From IMG/VR virus record IMGVR_UViG_638341086_000005: a stretch of 6,065 bases of DNA. One strand, given 5' to 3'. This stretch comes from a virus. Taxonomy: Duplodnaviria > Heunggongvirae > Uroviricota > Caudoviricetes. Below are positions 1-5,986 of the stretch, one piece after another. The notes beneath the pieces were generated by a model, which did no database searches, had not been told where the DNA came from, and saw nothing but the letters and a program-made list of their open reading frames with translations. A program made the position numbers and the translations under genes. Numbering within the stretch: the first letter of the stretch is position 1; every line of letters begins with the position of its first letter.

Positions 1-66
1 ATACATGTTGATTACACTATGCATCGACAACGATGCCACATTTTTGGCTGGTTGGCAAATCTGTCA

Positions 67-252
67 TCAGGGCGGACAACAACGCCACGATCTCATCTTT
101 CTTGGGCAATTTTTAAGAAAATCCTCAAGGGCAAATCTTTTTGGCCTTGCTTCCTGTTCATGGTCAGGCATTTCATCCATTTCTCTTAATTTTTTTTCTA
201 CCTGTCTTTCAAGTATGGATAATGCGATTTCCCGTAATTCTTCGTTGTTCAT
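67..252 (-). CDS. hypothetical small protein (61 aa), second gene of leftward regulatory operon
   Basis: Minus-strand ORF with strong SD AGGAG 6-7 nt upstream of ATG (revcomp of 253-270 = ...caggagtagacaATG). Charged, helical-looking N-terminus (MNNEELREIALSILERQVEKKLREM...). Sits 57 nt downstream of the 310..507 gene on the same strand. No family recognised. Confidence 0.5.
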   Translation of the reverse strand: MNNEELREIALSILERQVEKKLREMDEMPDHEQEARPKRFALEDFLKNCPRKMRSWRCCPP

Positions 253-309
253 TGTCTACTCCTGTAAAGAAATGCGCCGTAGTTCCTCACACCACGGCGC
301 TGATAGTGA

Positions 310-507
310 TTATTCTGATTCTTTGGCCTTCCGGCGCTGTTCATATTTTAATTTGCGTCCACAGGCATCTAAGACCCATGCGGAAAAATTAGCACTAGGA
401 TTAGTTAATTTTTCTTGTTCAACGCTGGCATCAATCCCATCTATAAGCTCATGTGGGAATCGAATATTTTTCTTTGCTGATTTGTTGTTTTTGTTACCGC
501 TAGACAT
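310..507 (-). CDS. YlcI/YnfO-like small DNA-binding protein (RHH-like), putative element regulator
   Basis: Minus-strand ORF, SD GAGGTG 6 nt upstream of ATG (revcomp of 508-525). Motifs NIRFPHELIDGIDA and NFSAWVLDACGRKL resemble, from memory, prophage YlcI/YnfO proteins and the helix-2 region of ribbon-helix-helix regulators. Positioned divergently from the rep operon next to the palindromic operators. Confidence 0.55.
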   Translation of the reverse strand: MSSGNKNNKSAKKNIRFPHELIDGIDASVEQEKLTNPSANFSAWVLDACGRKLKYEQRRKAKESE

Positions 508-534
508 TGATGCACCTCACTTAAATGGACTTTA

Positions 535-614
535 TGGGCGCACACAATACAGTAAAAAAAATGAGATGTTAAGTATTGACATGTGCGCACACATGATTTT
601 AATCTGTGCGCACA
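535..614. promoter_or_regulatory. divergent control region: three TGTGCGCACA palindromic operators overlapping a sigma70-like rightward promoter
   Basis: Perfect 10-bp palindrome TGTGCGCACA at 582-591 and 605-614; 9/10 copy TGGGCGCACA at 535-544. Candidate promoter: -35 TTGACA 576-581, 16-bp spacer that is mostly the palindrome, -10 TTTAAT 598-603; the third palindrome lies at the predicted start site. Lies between divergent genes 310..507(-) and 713..916(+). Confidence 0.55.
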
Positions 615-712
615 GTTTGAGTTTTGTTACTCAAATTAAGCAACGCCCCGCAGTGCTCGCAACACATGCAGGGCGTCTAACCACCAACGATAGCAACAGT
701 ATCGAGGCAGCT

Positions 713-916
713 ATGAGAAATCATACCACACACCCGCAAGGGCGGGACTCGCACAACCTGAATAAATACATCTGGCGTTTTATCGCCCTGAGCACGGCAC
801 AACCGCGCGTGATTACCATTGAGGCCACCAGCGAACAGGAAGCGCGTCAGCAATCTCCTGATGGCTGCGTGATGGTATTCGCCGCCCGTATTCGTCAGGG
901 GGTGTTCCATGCATGA
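713..916 (+). CDS. small protein (67 aa), Icd-like (host cell division inhibitor family) candidate
   Basis: In-frame ATG at 713 inside the spurious-looking long ORF 5..916, with GAGG 5 nt upstream (704-707). Sequence YIWRFIALSTAQPRVITIEATSEQEARQQ...VMVFAARI matches my recollection of Icd-like small proteins found upstream of primase genes in P4-like elements. Family assignment is from memory only. Confidence 0.5.
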   Translation: MRNHTTHPQGRDSHNLNKYIWRFIALSTAQPRVITIEATSEQEARQQSPDGCVMVFAARIRQGVFHA

Positions 917-1229
917 CATGACCAATTACCAGTACCTGATTAATCCGCATTTTAACTGTGAGCATGATATTGCTAAAAAGGTTTATTCCGCTGCGGATGG
1001 GGCTACTGACAATATATCAATGGCTGTTTCGTCAATTGGTAGCCTGATGTGGTATGCGTCAGAAAATAAGGAATATGACGAAAAGGCCATGCGCATTGAT
1101 ATGGGTAATATCGGTTTGTTACTGGCAATGCTTGGACAGTTTGATATTTCGTTACGGTGCACCATTGAAAATGCCACAGATGCATTAAATGCTATAAAGA
1201 AAGCGAATACTGATTTAAATCGGGGATAA
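909..1229 (+). CDS. hypothetical protein (106 aa), AT-rich orphan gene
   Basis: ORF whose ATG (909) overlaps the stop of the upstream gene by 8 nt (ATGCATGA); G-rich SD-like GGGGGTG at 896-902. Visibly more AT-rich than the rep gene. No family recognised. Confidence 0.5.
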   Translation: MHDMTNYQYLINPHFNCEHDIAKKVYSAADGATDNISMAVSSIGSLMWYASENKEYDEKAMRIDMGNIGLLLAMLGQFDISLRCTIENATDALNAIKKANTDLNRG

Positions 1230-1235
1230 ATAATC

Positions 1236-1535
1236 ATGAGAACATATTTATCTGGCTTGACTGCCAGCGGTTATGCACACCCCCAAATTATCCCCGGCGC
1301 TATTTATCTGGATAAGAACGGTAACAGAGTAACGGTAAAAGAACTGATGTTTGACCGTGTGTATTTTATCCGTGATGGCTATTCATTTCTTAGTTCGCTG
1401 AACGTGGAGATCTTTATTAGCAGATTCAGGCGGGAAATCCCGCTTTCCAGAAATAACCATGTGTCATGTATGGATGTTGATAAAAAACTACAGGAACTAA
1501 AAAACATGATTGCCGCGTGGAGAGAGCAGAAATGA
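1236..1535 (+). CDS. hypothetical protein (99 aa), AT-rich orphan gene
   Basis: ORF starting 7 nt after the previous stop. Its stop overlaps the rep start codon (ATGA at 1532-1535), indicating translational coupling into rep. AT-rich. No family recognised. Confidence 0.5.
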   Translation: MRTYLSGLTASGYAHPQIIPGAIYLDKNGNRVTVKELMFDRVYFIRDGYSFLSSLNVEIFISRFRREIPLSRNNHVSCMDVDKKLQELKNMIAAWREQK

Positions 1536-3655
1536 AAAAAGCGCCAAATTTAAAACACCAGCCACGTGACAAAATGACGGAAGTCATCATTTTTGCGGGT
1601 AGTGATGCGTGGGCACATGCGAAGCAGTGGCAGGAACAGGACGGGCGACTGGCTGGCGACAGCGTGCCTCCTGTCTGGCTTGGAGAGCAACAACTTGCCG
1701 AACTGGATAAGCTGCAAATTGTGCCGGAAGGCCGAAAATCAGTACGCATATTCAGGGCCGGACATCTTGAGCCAGTAATGATCAAGGCGATTGGTCAGAA
1801 GCTGGCGGCGGCAGGCGTACAGGATGCAAATTTTTACCCTGATGGAATGCACGGTCAGGAGGTGGAGAACTGGCGCGAATATCTAGCCCGTGAGCGGCAG
1901 AATCTTTCTGATGGTCTGGTTATTGAGTTTCCGGTAAAGAAAAAAGATACCGGAAGCCATAGCGATGACGAATTAAAGCCACGCGTTGAAAGTCGCGCCG
2001 ATGGTGTTTTCTGGGTAACGCCCAAAGTGGATAAGCAGTCAGGCGAAATTATCCGGCCTGAGACGTGGTTATGTTCTCCGCTTGAACTACTGGGAACGGG
2101 GACGATCGGTAAAGAGCATTACCGCGTGATGCGCTGGAAAAAAACCGCAAACCATGAAGTCATCACAATGGCGATCCCGTGTGGTGGTATCGGCGACCGT
2201 GACGGCTGGCGGTTACTTAAAGATCACGGGCTGAACGTGACAACCAACGGCAAATACAGGGCAATCCTGGCGGACTGGATGCAGTTAAGCGGAAGCCATG
2301 AGGAATGGCAGTTAAGCACAACAACGGGCTGGCATTTTGGCGCGTACATCATGCCGGACGGTTCGATCATTGGTGAATCTGAAAAACCGATCCTGTTTAC
2401 CGGAAAAAGCGCCGCGATTAACGGTTATTCCGTGGCGGGCACGGCGGATGGCTGGCGCGACAGCGTGGCGCGTCTGGCTGGCGGTAATGCCTCAATGATG
2501 CTGGGTGTGGCAACGTCACTGGCAGCGCCTTTAATTGGCCTTGTGGGTGCTGACGGCTTCGGGGTGCATCTTTTCGAACAGTCATCGGCAGGTAAGACCA
2601 CCACGCAGAACATCGCATCAAGTTTATGGGGAGAGCCGGACGCGCAGCGGCTGACCTGGTACGGCACGGCGTTAGGTATTGCCAATGAGGCCGAGGCCCA
2701 TAATGACGGGCTTTTACCACTGGATGAGATAGGCCAGGCCGGAAATGCGCGGGAAGTGTCAACGTCTGCTTATACGCTGTTTAACGGTTCAGGGAAATTG
2801 CAGGGGGCGAAGGATGGCGGCAACAGGGAGATCAAACACTGGCGAACGGTGGCAATCAGCACCGGAGAAATGGACGTTGAGACATTCCTCAAAAGTGAGG
2901 GGATAAAAGTTAAGGCGGGGCAGCTTGTCCGACTGCTTAACGTTCCGATGGAAAAAGCCACGAAATTTCACGAATACAGCAACGGTAAGGAACATGCTGA
3001 CGCGTTAAAGGATGCCTGGACAGCAAATCACGGGGCGGCGGGTCGTGAGTGGGTTAAATGGCTGGCAGGCCACCAGCAGGAGGCAAAGGATACGGTAAGG
3101 GAATGCCGCGAACGGTGGCGCAACCTGATACCGGAGAGCTACGGCGAGCAGGTCCACCGCGTGGGTGAACGTTTCGCCATACTGGAGGCCGCGCTTGTGC
3201 TTTCCGGTCATGTAACTGGCTGGGTCGTGCAGGAATGCCGCGACGCGATACAGCATAACTTTAATGCCTGGGTGAAGGAGTTCGGCACGGGTAACAGGGA
3301 ATTTAAACAGATGGTTGAACAGGCTGAGGCGTTTTTGTCGTCGTTTGGGTTTAGCCGCTACCTTCCGTACCCCAATACAGATGAGCGTGATTTACCGATT
3401 AAAGAGCTTGCCGGATACAGAAAAGGGAGCATTCGCAACGAAGATGACGAGATGCGCTATTACACGTTCCCGCACGTGTTTGAGAGTGAGATAGCGAAGG
3501 GATTTAATCCGGCGCATTTTGCGCGTGCCCTGGATGCTGCCGGAATGCTGGAGAAGGGAAGCGATCGCCGATACAAAAAAAAGGCGCTGGGCAAGATTGG
3601 GGGTAAGCAGCATGTTTTTTACGTGCTGATGTTCCAGCCTGATGATGAAGATTAA
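1532..3655 (+). CDS. replication initiator, primase/helicase-like P-loop NTPase (DUF927-type / satellite Pri-Rep-like)
   Basis: Longest ORF in the window. Probable start ATG 1532 (SD GGAGAGAG at 1519-1526) rather than the GTG at 1517. Walker A-like FEQSSAGKTTT (~2575-2607) and Walker B-like LLPLDEIG (~2710-2735). TTTGWHFGAYIMPDGSIIG segment resembles DUF927-type replication proteins. Followed directly by the iteron array, as expected for a cis-acting initiator. Confidence 0.8.
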   Translation: MKKAPNLKHQPRDKMTEVIIFAGSDAWAHAKQWQEQDGRLAGDSVPPVWLGEQQLAELDKLQIVPEGRKSVRIFRAGHLEPVMIKAIGQKLAAAGVQDANFYPDGMHGQEVENWREYLARERQNLSDGLVIEFPVKKKDTGSHSDDELKPRVESRADGVFWVTPKVDKQSGEIIRPETWLCSPLELLGTGTIGKEHYRVMRWKKTANHEVITMAIPCGGIGDRDGWRLLKDHGLNVTTNGKYRAILADWMQLSGSHEEWQLSTTTGWHFGAYIMPDGSIIGESEKPILFTGKSAAINGYSVAGTADGWRDSVARLAGGNASMMLGVATSLAAPLIGLVGADGFGVHLFEQSSAGKTTTQNIASSLWGEPDAQRLTWYGTALGIANEAEAHNDGLLPLDEIGQAGNAREVSTSAYTLFNGSGKLQGAKDGGNREIKHWRTVAISTGEMDVETFLKSEGIKVKAGQLVRLLNVPMEKATKFHEYSNGKEHADALKDAWTANHGAAGREWVKWLAGHQQEAKDTVRECRERWRNLIPESYGEQVHRVGERFAILEAALVLSGHVTGWVVQECRDAIQHNFNAWVKEFGTGNREFKQMVEQAEAFLSSFGFSRYLPYPNTDERDLPIKELAGYRKGSIRNEDDEMRYYTFPHVFESEIAKGFNPAHFARALDAAGMLEKGSDRRYKKKALGKIGGKQHVFYVLMFQPDDED

Positions 3656-3677
3656 TCCCCTGTGTGAGGAAAAAAAT

Positions 3678-3993
3678 TGCGGGTTATGCGGGTTATCCTG
3701 TGTATAAGTGTATTAAGTGCATGAATATAAAGGAAACCAATAACCCGCACGTAACCCGCAAAATGGCATTTATAACCCGCAAAAGCACGATTATAACCCG
3801 CAGGCGAATAACTGAAGTAACACCGGACAGTCATGCGTAACCCGCAGAAAAAACCCCGTTTGCGGGTTATTTTGAGCGTTTTGCGGGTTACGTGGTGAGC
3901 AAATAATAAACAGGGCGTTTTGCAAAATACTGATATAAAAGGATAAAAAATGGTTAGCACGCTAAGATAACCCAATAACCCGCATAACCCGCA
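3678..3993. repeat. iteron array / putative origin of replication (9-mer TAACCCGCA, 11 perfect copies, both orientations) with AT-rich tracts
   Basis: TGCGGGTTA at 3678-3686, 3687-3695, 3861-3869, 3882-3890. Reverse complement TAACCCGCA at 3741-3749, 3752-3760, 3773-3781, 3794-3802, 3838-3846, 3976-3984, 3985-3993, plus degenerate TAACCCAA at 3968-3975. Spacings of 9, 11, 21, 21 and 21 bp are near helical-turn multiples. AT-rich stretches at 3901-3960 and 4001-4013 (TATATATATAAAT) are candidate unwinding elements. No credible coding capacity (only a low-complexity antisense ORF). Confidence 0.75.
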
Positions 3994-5254: not shown

Positions 5255-5986
5255 ATGCCGAGAATAATCGAATTACGCCAGCAGAAAACCGCCATTAAAA
5301 ATCAGATGCGCGACATGCTGGAGAACGCGGAAAAAGAAAACCGCAGCCTTAACGATGCTGAGGGCGCAAAATTTGACGAATTACGCGCTAAAGCTGAATC
5401 CCTCGATAAAGACATTTCCCGCCTTGAAGCCATTGCAGACGAAGAGCGCAGTAAACCAGGCAAAAACAGCCAGACCACTGACCCCGCAGAACTACGCAAC
5501 TACATTCTGACAGGTGAAACCCGCGCATTAAGTACAGGCGTTCCCGCTGATGGTGGTTATACCGTTATCCCCGAACTGAACACCGAAATCATGCGAATGC
5601 TGGCGGATGAGTCCACCATGCGCCGCATCTGTACCGTGAAGAAAATCAGCAGCAACGAGTTTAAGCAGCTTGTTTCCGCTGGCGGTGCGACCGTTAACCA
5701 CGGTGAAGAGGGTAAGACACGCGAACAGACCAGCACCCCGCAGATTAACGAGGTGAGCATTAAGCTGTATCCGGTCTATGCGTACCCGCGCACCACACAG
5801 GAAATCGTGGATTTTTCCGATGTGGACATCCTTTCATGGCTGACGGGTGAGATTGGCGACACCTTCACGGAAACCGAAGAAAGCGATCTGGTTGTGGGCG
5901 ACGGTGACAAAAAGCAAAAGGTTTTTTATCCGTACCCCGTGCAGAGAAGAACGACAAAGAGCGTGATTTTGGTACGTTGCACGTAA
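5255..5986 (+). CDS. major capsid protein, HK97-type (N-terminal ~60%; reading frame interrupted near 5909-5914)
   Basis: ATG 5255 (the track's 5207 start is a GTG inside the hairpin). N-terminal coiled-coil-like delta-domain region (IIELRQQKTAIKNQMRDMLENAEKENRSLNDAEGAKFDELRAKAESLDKDISRLEAI) followed by GGYTVIPELNTEIMRMLADESTMRRICTV, typical of HK97-fold capsid proteins. In-frame product stops at 5986, but the ORF continues in the -1 frame (see next feature). Confidence 0.7.
   Translation: MPRIIELRQQKTAIKNQMRDMLENAEKENRSLNDAEGAKFDELRAKAESLDKDISRLEAIADEERSKPGKNSQTTDPAELRNYILTGETRALSTGVPADGGYTVIPELNTEIMRMLADESTMRRICTVKKISSNEFKQLVSAGGATVNHGEEGKTREQTSTPQINEVSIKLYPVYAYPRTTQEIVDFSDVDILSWLTGEIGDTFTETEESDLVVGDGDKKQKVFYPYPVQRRTTKSVILVRCT

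Follow-up and report, generated by a model that had tools for sequence, protein, structure and literature searches.

A predicted YlcI-family repressor and its candidate operators on divergent promoters of an Escherichia coli capsid-forming phage-inducible chromosomal island

How is the replication operon controlled in a satellite element of a class for which an activator, and no repressor, has been described? This question is raised by a 6,065-nucleotide stretch of viral DNA (IMG/VR record IMGVR_UViG_638341086_000005; hereafter, the window) that, judging by its gene content, is the regulatory and replication part of an Escherichia coli capsid-forming phage-inducible chromosomal island (cf-PICI). 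The cf-PICIs have been described (bioRxiv 10.1101/2022.09.08.507074), and AlpA is the activator required for the induction of EcCIEDL933 and EcCICFT073 (bioRxiv 10.1101/2022.09.08.507074; PMC6092414). Gram-negative satellites have been described as controlled by this one activator, and the question of a repressor was left open in 2018. An original prediction, made from the letters of the window alone, placed a compact genetic switch at positions 508-712, between two divergent operons. The analysis described here points to a probable answer: the best explanation overall is that YlcI, the small protein encoded next to this region, is a dimeric repressor that acts on three palindromic sites and controls both the rightward promoter of the replication operon (P_R) and its own leftward promoter (P_L).

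The palindrome TGTGCGCACA is present in exact form at positions 582-591 and 605-614, and a third copy, TGGGCGCACA, 9/10 identical to TGTGCGCACA, lies at 535-544, just as originally predicted. The window contains no further match with at most one mismatch; the three matches observed compare with a chance expectation of 0.28, and only 1 of 200 shuffled sequences contained three matches anywhere, irrespective of clustering, the real three falling within 80 bp. The same three matches to TGTGCGCACA are the only ones in an 18.7-kb stretch (L002) that comprises an element and its chromosomal flank and is identical in its left part to positions 1-720 of the window. The motifs of two other E. coli elements, which differ in sequence, are likewise confined to their own switch regions.

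Two of the three sites are superimposed on a predicted rightward promoter, P_R (576..605, + strand), which consists of the -35 hexamer TTGACA (576-581), preceded by an A-rich tract, an 18-bp spacer and the -10 hexamer TAATCT (600-605). The first predicted operator, O1 (ATGTGCGCACAC, 581..592), starts at the last base of the -35 hexamer, which it abuts, and occupies the first 11 bp of the spacer; the second, O2 (CTGTGCGCACAG, 604..615), covers the last two bases of the -10 hexamer and the expected transcription start at ~611-613. The earlier assignment of one site to the spacer and one to the start thus holds. TAATCT is the -10 hexamer whose position is conserved across loci; an alternative, TTTAAT (598-603, 16-bp spacer), is found in this window only. 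In 20 distinct P_R regions, the TTGA of the -35 element is invariant, and the first T, the second A and the sixth T of the -10 element are retained in 16, 20 and 18 regions, respectively.

The promoter of ylcI, P_L (544..572, - strand; -35 TTAACA at 572..567, 17-bp spacer, -10 TATTGT at 549..544), a promoter-like site returned by the scan, stands back to back with P_R, with 3 bp separating the two -35 hexamers. The third predicted operator, O3 (ATGGGCGCACAC, 534..545, containing the 9/10 palindrome), overlaps the end of the P_L -10 hexamer and the expected start of transcription, and is presumed to be the autoregulatory site of ylcI. A conserved ATACA that follows O3 in other loci mirrors the -10-plus-operator arrangement of P_R. 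The O3 palindrome is exact in the Klebsiella, Rahnella and Erwinia loci of the same type; the four E. coli variants that were compared, the window among them, all share one T>G change in it, and substitutions among the E. coli variants spare the sites and the promoter hexamers. One E. coli variant (L043, NZ_CM163382.1) shows a 1-nt deletion within O2 (TGTGCGCA-A), at the position equivalent to window position 613, which would weaken the operator and shift the long reading frame described below.

To what extent these sites are a general feature of the region can be assessed from 35 loci with YlcI relatives, taken from one-genome-per-species contigs (the genera include Serratia, Klebsiella, Rahnella, Pectobacterium, Xenorhabdus, Brenneria, Proteus, Morganella, Arsenophonus, Erwinia, a Pasteurellaceae taxon and Gilliamella), together with three more E. 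coli elements. Within 4 kb on the ylcI side, an integrase homologue is found in most of the 35 and an AlpA homologue in about half; on the opposite side, about half contain homologues of the Icd-like, DUF4222 or DUF927 genes. The same site layout is found in 37 related loci from about 20 genera: a site, ATACA, an A-rich tract, TTGAC, a second site, an 18-bp spacer to TAnnnT, a third site and the leader. In every locus examined, TTGAC is immediately followed by an O1-type site; relative to O1, O2 is placed at +23 bp in 30 of 34 loci and O3 at -46/-47 bp, and one locus type has extra sites at -24 and -70, giving a 23-bp ladder.

All the sites fit the 12-bp pattern RTGTnn|nnACAY. Its centre varies by locus, and does so in concert across the sites of each locus: O1 and O2 differ in their central 6 bp at 0.74 positions within a locus vs 2.96 between loci. 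In the five loci of the type represented by the window, invariance is limited to the sites, the promoter hexamers and parts of the leader. These comparisons support the view that the palindromes behave as operators of a locus-specific protein.

The changing centres go together with changes in residues 11-14 of the N-terminal arm of YlcI. The arm AKKN pairs with TGTGCGCACA in E. coli, Klebsiella and two Rahnella species (the window and L010-L012), and the same sites are found in an Erwinia locus (L032) in which ylcI is frameshifted within a poly-A run, so that the arm reads AKKK...N. The other pairs are QLKN with TGTCTACACA (L003), TTKG with GTGTATATGCAC (L006-L008, L019, L020 and others), xYKG with GTGTTTAAACAC (L009, L015, L021, L022 and L035), AQKK with GTGTACCCCCAC (L014), ATKK with GTGTGGCCGCAC (L017) and AKKH with GTGGGTnCACAC (L018 and L033). 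E. coli elements whose ylcI alleles are more divergent show further repeats: three copies of GTGGCTGACAC in the same places in an O157:H7 cf-PICI (L039), TGTGATTCA repeats in L001 and two copies of TGGTACGTACCA in L038. Two genomes, those of Serratia sp. Ag1 (L004 and L007) and Xenorhabdus kozodoii (L025 and L031), each carry two islands with different arm/operator types. Many arm/operator specificities would keep co-resident islands from cross-regulating, and suggest selection for orthogonality.

This diversity bears on the possibility that the repeats act as structure, with O1 and O2 forming a hairpin or cruciform that terminates or attenuates transcription. The two sites are identical palindromes that could pair, and a terminator scan flagged a hairpin at 580-595 followed by a T-rich tract. 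However, the predicted start lies inside O2, so O1 is outside the P_R transcript, and the repeats of other alleles are direct and non-palindromic (GTGGCTGACAC in L039, TGTGATTCA in L001), that is, the repetition is conserved and the pairing is not. We therefore regard a structural role of the repeats as extremely unlikely.

If the sites are read by a protein, which one reads them? The distances between operators correlate with those between YlcI residues 2-15 (Mantel r=0.70-0.72, p<=2.5e-4) and not significantly with those between the rest of YlcI (r=0.05-0.08). Because the arm codons lie 30-140 bp from the sites, linkage was controlled for explicitly by partial Mantel tests. Linkage does supply part of the arm correlation, a point against assigning all of it to recognition: the operator distances also correlate with those of neighbouring non-operator DNA (r=0.48-0.55, p<=2.5e-4). 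The arm association nevertheless survives control for the neighbouring DNA (partial r=0.60-0.63, p<=2.5e-4), whereas the correlation with neighbouring DNA falls to 0.16-0.27 (p<=0.008) when the arm is controlled for. Pure linkage thus accounts for part of the covariation and not for most of it. The comparison of loci establishes that the sites are real, conserved in position, specific to each locus and covarying with YlcI.

The strongest associations with the operator are those of residues 12, 14 and 11, beside the invariant R16 and the hydrophobic I15 and F17. The pattern formed by residues 12, 14, 11 and 16 (i, i+2, i+4) is the alternation that would be expected of a DNA-facing beta-strand in the major groove, and the covariation fits base recognition by alternate residues of an N-terminal strand, as in repressors of the ribbon-helix-helix (RHH) fold.

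The competing possibility is that the palindromes are bound by a different factor (for example AlpA, the Icd-like protein, the primase/initiator, the product of the 67..252 open reading frame (ORF) or a host regulator), and YlcI is merely encoded next to them. Among the regulators of these islands, AlpA alone is experimentally established, the PHROGs database labels the Icd-like family 'transcriptional repressor', and the TGTG/CACA ends of the sites resemble the half-sites of several host regulators. The mosaic structure of the elements argues against each of these candidates. L001 and L002 encode identical AlpA proteins (WP_000953271.1) and have different repeats. L038 is 99% identical to the window from position 645 rightward, and hence shares with it the Icd-like protein, the primase and all else on that side, yet differs from it in both the ylcI allele and the palindromes. 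The site types are not tracked by the N-termini of the Icd-like proteins, and the same N-terminus is found with different sites. The origin iterons (TAACCCGCA, 3678-3993) are unrelated in sequence to the palindromes. The 67..252 protein, which had been put forward earlier as a second possible binder, has no homologue in the 35 related loci and is not a candidate. A host factor, for its part, cannot explain at least 10 site types that track a linked protein across genera. Binding by a factor other than YlcI accordingly appears quite unlikely.

The exchanged segment itself extends from ~330 to ~645 and consists of the DNA-binding part of ylcI together with the operators; its breakpoints map to window positions ~236-330 and ~645. 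On one side, the 3' end of the gene (encoding the C-terminal tail RRKAKESE) and the terminator-like hairpin are common to different ylcI alleles, as are the leader hairpin and the Icd-like gene on the other. By analogy, such cassette exchange is the pattern known from phage immunity regions. Given that the sites track residues 11-14 and that the other candidates are excluded by the mosaics, the earlier suggestion that the adjacent 310..507 protein is the ligand gains support, and we consider it very likely that the three palindromes are operators that YlcI is predicted to bind.

The protein encoded by 310..507 belongs to the YlcI/YnfO family (NF041551, 59 bits vs a cut-off of 30, E=3.5e-16; DUF3950, PF13132, 30.1 bits vs a cut-off of 25; PHROG 949, E=1.9e-27). 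The original description of the protein as 'YlcI/RHH-like' is borne out in its first half; as for the second, searches with five alleles retrieved none of the RHH families of Pfam at E<=10 for the window protein, and the L001 allele gave a faint match to PSK_trans_fac (E=0.017). A search of the Protein Data Bank sequences with the family profile found no meaningful relative, and Foldseek returned no match. An AlphaFold2 model built from a 110-sequence alignment (predicted local distance difference test score of 76) consists of an extended N-terminus and helices at residues 19-33 and 41-63. Taken together, the topology and the covariation pattern make the RHH fold the most probable reading for YlcI. 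Literature searches combining PICI with ribbon-helix-helix and cf-PICI with repressor found no functional study.

A family member is also encoded in phage lambda: a 64-amino-acid (aa) ORF (MSTKNRTRRTTTRNIRFPNQ...NFSAWVIEAC; DUF3950, E=1.9e-20) at J02459 positions 48109-48303 (equivalent to L040 1710-1904, - strand), ~200 bp from the right cos end; the reference record does not annotate it. Relatives of the putative island repressor are thus encoded by lambdoid helpers, no more than a lead towards a helper protein that might lift repression.

From these observations we infer the fold of YlcI, its dimeric state, the binding itself and repression as the direction of regulation. In the proposed mechanism, the N-terminal arm or strand of YlcI (residues ~11-16, A-K-K-N-I-R) would read RTGTnn|nnACAY, here TGTGCGCACA; dimers bound to O1 and O2 would exclude RNA polymerase from P_R and thereby silence the operon of the Icd-like, DUF4222 and DUF927-primase genes; and a dimer on the weaker, 9/10 site O3 would limit transcription of ylcI from P_L. 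The prediction that the rightward operon is repressed follows from the sites covering the -35/-10 spacer and the start of P_R, and we judge repression of P_R by YlcI to be likely. The earlier proposal that a repressor bound at these sites would shut off the rep operon is, accordingly, supported by the positions of O1 and O2.

Activation of P_R by YlcI bound in the spacer, in the manner of MerR, would be suggested by the conserved 18-bp spacer and the weak -10 hexamer, and spacer-bound activators are known. However, O1 abuts the -35 hexamer and is not centred in the spacer, O2 covers the end of the -10 hexamer and the start, which is incompatible with open-complex formation, and the mirror operator at P_L has the classical geometry of autorepression; activation of P_R is, on this evidence, very unlikely. 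The presence of a small gene after ylcI could also indicate that ylcI is an antitoxin or autoregulator of a leftward cassette with the 67..252 ORF, the overlap with P_R being incidental. But the two exact sites are on P_R and not on P_L, and in all loci O1 and O2 retain their place with respect to the rightward -35 and -10; the 67..252 ORF, for its part, is preceded by a terminator-like hairpin, is not co-conserved with ylcI, is absent in L038 and matches no toxin family. We find such a cassette highly improbable and retain YlcI repression of P_R as the preferred reading.

The region between the genes also has features beyond the operators. The leader of the P_R transcript is predicted to fold into three hairpins (-31 kcal/mol, z=-3.3), all on the + strand. 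Hairpin 1 (614..637), at the 5' end of the transcript, retains its pairing in the E. coli variants via G-U pairs, and inverted repeats of other sequence occupy the same place elsewhere. Hairpin 2 (643..676) shows compensatory changes in 7 of 11 pairs, with 92% of cells paired, and is separated by a conserved single-stranded CTAACCA (677-683) from hairpin 3 (688..704; CGATA/TATCG), in which 4 of 5 pairs show compensatory changes (CGTTA/TAACG, CGTAA/TTACG, ATTA/TAAT) and the 3' arm touches the Shine-Dalgarno sequence GAGG (704-707) of the Icd-like gene. For hairpins 2 and 3 together, in 27 sequences, 93% of cells are paired and 11 of 16 pairs are compensatory, values that 0 of 500 shuffles reached; slid controls were 27-42% paired. 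Translation control, stability or a processing site are possible roles of the leader. Rfam searches of the whole window and of 560-760 gave no match near the gathering score, the best being to unrelated families at 11-19 bits; C4/isrK antisense-RNA immunity in the leader was considered and rejected given that no Rfam covariance model matched in 560-760. A boxA-like reading of CTAACCA was set aside as well, the by-eye match requiring indels.

Furthermore, the layout is indeed divergent, as originally described, but the region is not simply intergenic. A stop-free frame on the + strand (2..916) runs antisense through the 67..252 ORF and ylcI, then across the operators, the promoters and the leader, with the Icd-like domain at its end. 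In L002, it begins at the stop codon of alpA, 281 nt ahead of the window, and specifies 378 aa (8720-9913); the frame of L001 has the same starting point and specifies 377 aa, the last part of which is the Icd-like domain (8575-9765); and in L038, it starts 10 nt after alpA (3112-3771). The stretch from ylcI to the Icd-like gene (178-217 nt) is stop-free in the Icd-like frame in 20 of 30 loci, vs 2 of 30 for each of the other two frames and 0.46 of 30 predicted from shuffles. All 20 open loci have a stretch length of 1 modulo 3, over ten different lengths. In addition, ylcI avoids codon pairs that give antisense stops in 26 of 29 loci, vs 9.1 expected, and the frame stays open for another 350-1000 nt, reaching ATG codons that have good Shine-Dalgarno sequences. 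We conclude, from these sequence patterns, that selection keeps the frame open, either for a protein or for the act of translation. Pfam and NCBIfam searches with three long-frame products matched only the C-terminal Icd-like domain, and the Prokaryotic Genome Annotation Pipeline annotates pieces of the frame as 'Icd-like' proteins or pseudogenes.

The frame fits the published picture of a unidirectional AlpA-driven transcription unit, and since it opens just after alpA and spans the switch, the switch is embedded in that unit. The original designation 'immunity/induction switch' is therefore plausible but incomplete: published induction needs AlpA, and the switch sits in a frame that starts after alpA. 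That it is the maintenance switch of the element, acting together with AlpA, seems to us about an even proposition. A possible route from AlpA to the switch would be read-through: during helper-phage induction, AlpA-activated upstream transcription and translation would pass through the switch, with translation of the long frame keeping the AlpA-driven transcript Rho-resistant, head-on through ylcI and over the operators; convergent to P_L, the read-through would lower repressor synthesis, and P_R would fire. We put this read-through mechanism forward as a tentative and rather doubtful suggestion.

Several considerations weigh against the repressor model or its link to AlpA. The strict consensus promoter scan did not list P_R, and the strength of P_R is uncertain because its conserved -10 hexamer is weak and its spacer is 18 bp long. 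PHROG 949 and DUF3950 are labelled 'unknown function', and our literature search found no paper on the function of YlcI, YnfO or DUF3950. AlpA alone explains the published induction of cf-PICIs, and a repressor has so far not been needed. Finally, the connection between AlpA read-through and derepression is one that we infer, and a weak terminator-like hairpin on the + strand (21-36) could oppose read-through. As a terminator after alpA, this hairpin was rejected, having a 6-bp stem and a displaced T-run, with a scan not above its shuffles.

The remaining content of the window agrees with the assignment to the cf-PICIs. On the - strand, the ylcI-like gene (310..507) encodes the predicted RHH repressor of 65 aa, with AKKN at residues 11-14 followed by a nearly invariant IRFP (15-18). 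It is separated from the 61-aa ORF (67..252) by a terminator-like hairpin stronger than the one at 21-36 (274..300; a 10-bp stem followed by ATTTCTTT) that is part of a block conserved between different ylcI alleles; the 67..252 ORF may be expressed only by read-through past this hairpin, although the terminator-like hairpin scan as a whole did not exceed its shuffles. The rightward operon starts with the Icd-like gene (713..916; NF033153, E=9e-20), a member of a family labelled 'transcriptional repressor' in PHROGs (phrog_6196 and phrog_1743) and cell-division inhibitor in NCBIfam, and continues with a small ORF (909..1229), a DUF4222 gene between this ORF and the primase, and the DUF927 primase (1532..3655). 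Downstream of the primase, 11 copies of a 9-mer (TAACCCGCA/TGCGGGTTA, in both orientations) form a PICI-type iteron origin (3678-3993), and the right part of the window is annotated as encoding an SSB, a PerC homologue and the start of an HK97-type capsid protein (from 5255). The capsid gene contains single-base deletions in A runs at ~5908 and ~6054 relative to the 99%-identical L038, and its ORF stops at 5986; these are either homopolymer sequencing errors or signs of a decaying element.

Complete E. coli genomes show an element inserted in tqsA, in which the window region is flanked on the left by int-alpA and on the right by genes for a protease, portal, connectors, HNH and terminase. Both L001 and L002, which are also in tqsA, contain int, alpA, ylcI, an Icd-like gene, a replication gene (DUF927 primase in L001, RepA-family helicase in L002), SSB, PerC, HK97 capsid, protease, portal and HNH genes; L001 additionally encodes TerS and TerL, and the HNH gene is the last in the L002 stretch. 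Taken with the iterons of the window, the annotation of these two elements, which carry the sequence of the window or close relatives of it, thus includes int and alpA, a primase/replication module with an iteron origin and an own set of HK97 capsid and packaging genes, and no tail genes, the combination that characterizes cf-PICIs. The window matches up to 7 places within one E. coli genome, and this ylcI/operator allele is present in 68 of 5,426 complete E. coli genomes.

What would follow if YlcI is the repressor? It would be a widely conserved candidate repressor with mapped putative operators, and this would be the first functional prediction for DUF3950/YlcI-YnfO, a family that spans two E. 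coli K-12 y-genes and an unannotated lambda ORF; if the prediction is true, the lambda 64-aa ORF and the K-12 ylcI and ynfO homologues would be DNA-binding regulators too. The natural set of at least 10 orthogonal arm/operator pairs offers material for deciphering a recognition code of the fold and a source of compact regulatory parts. If the read-through frame is functional, the locus would exemplify a genetic switch overprinted inside a translated gene and, if confirmed, a new variant. As a speculation that we hold loosely, the YlcI/YnfO proteins might be the missing repressors of many Gram-negative PICIs and cf-PICIs, nested in a translated frame and induced by AlpA read-through.

Among known systems, immI of phage P22 encodes small RHH repressors, Mnt and Arc, which act on the promoters Pant and Pmnt and are divergent from the operon that is silenced. 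The locus described here shares with immI a repressor gene divergent from the operon, short symmetric operators placed on promoter elements and a repressor promoter under the same cluster of sites. It differs in that no sequence relationship is detectable, in that three and up to five 12-bp sites in 23-bp steps take the place of a single 17- or 21-bp operator, and in that a replication operon, rather than an antirepressor operon, is controlled, with a long open frame crossing the region. In phage lambda, CI and Cro bind OR1-OR3 between PRM and PR. Like lambda OR, the switch consists of three related operators between back-to-back promoters, with the one nearest the repressor gene being the weakest and lying on the repressor's own promoter, and, as in lambda, the immunity cassette of DNA-binding part plus operators is swapped as a block between mosaic genomes. 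Unlike in lambda, no Cro-like second protein acting on the sites was found and the predicted fold is different; unlike CI, YlcI is devoid of a cleavable C-terminal domain, so that RecA-type induction is not expected.

The Stl/Rpr repressors of Gram-positive PICIs, including the Staphylococcus aureus pathogenicity islands (PMC6092414), are also divergent from the replication and packaging operon of the satellite and come in many allelic specificities, and YlcI would similarly be expected to keep the island repressed in the absence of helper-phage activity. The divergence from the replication operon is shared, with ylcI leftward and the Icd-like and primase genes rightward. Unlike Stl/Rpr, which are large helix-turn-helix (HTH) proteins encoded co-directionally with int, YlcI is a 65-aa, RHH-like protein encoded between alpA and the replication genes, opposite to int and alpA, and the class to which this element belongs is induced via AlpA in published work. 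Adjacency and co-orientation with int were not observed, and neither Pfam nor NCBIfam gave an HTH or Stl-like match.

Together with EcCICFT073 and the cf-PICI EcCIEDL933 (PMC6092414; bioRxiv 10.1101/2022.09.08.507074), the element has int, alpA, a primase and an iteron origin, to which cf-PICIs add a capsid and packaging module. An O157:H7 cf-PICI (L039) shares this switch layout, although its specificity is different. In contrast to the AlpA model of a single activator and unidirectional genes, the locus includes a putative leftward repressor gene, its predicted operators and an internal P_R.

For the translated frame, the nearest precedent is the immunity leader of P4, where the nested genes kil and eta are translated and translation across the leader modulates transcription termination. 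As in P4, an icd-type gene of a satellite is preceded by a structured leader, across which an open frame extends. The C4/isrK profiles of Rfam are mentioned in connection with the P1/P4 C4/CI RNA immunity upstream of icd (PMC10111431). Unlike in P4 and P1, the leader described here matches no C4, isrK or other Rfam family, control is predicted to be exerted by a protein repressor, and the frame also runs antisense through the repressor gene. The switch, then, resembles P22 immI and lambda OR in its logic and Stl in its role, and is a member of none of those families; a small repressor with operators on divergent promoters is a known kind of device, which is new for a class of elements without a described repressor.

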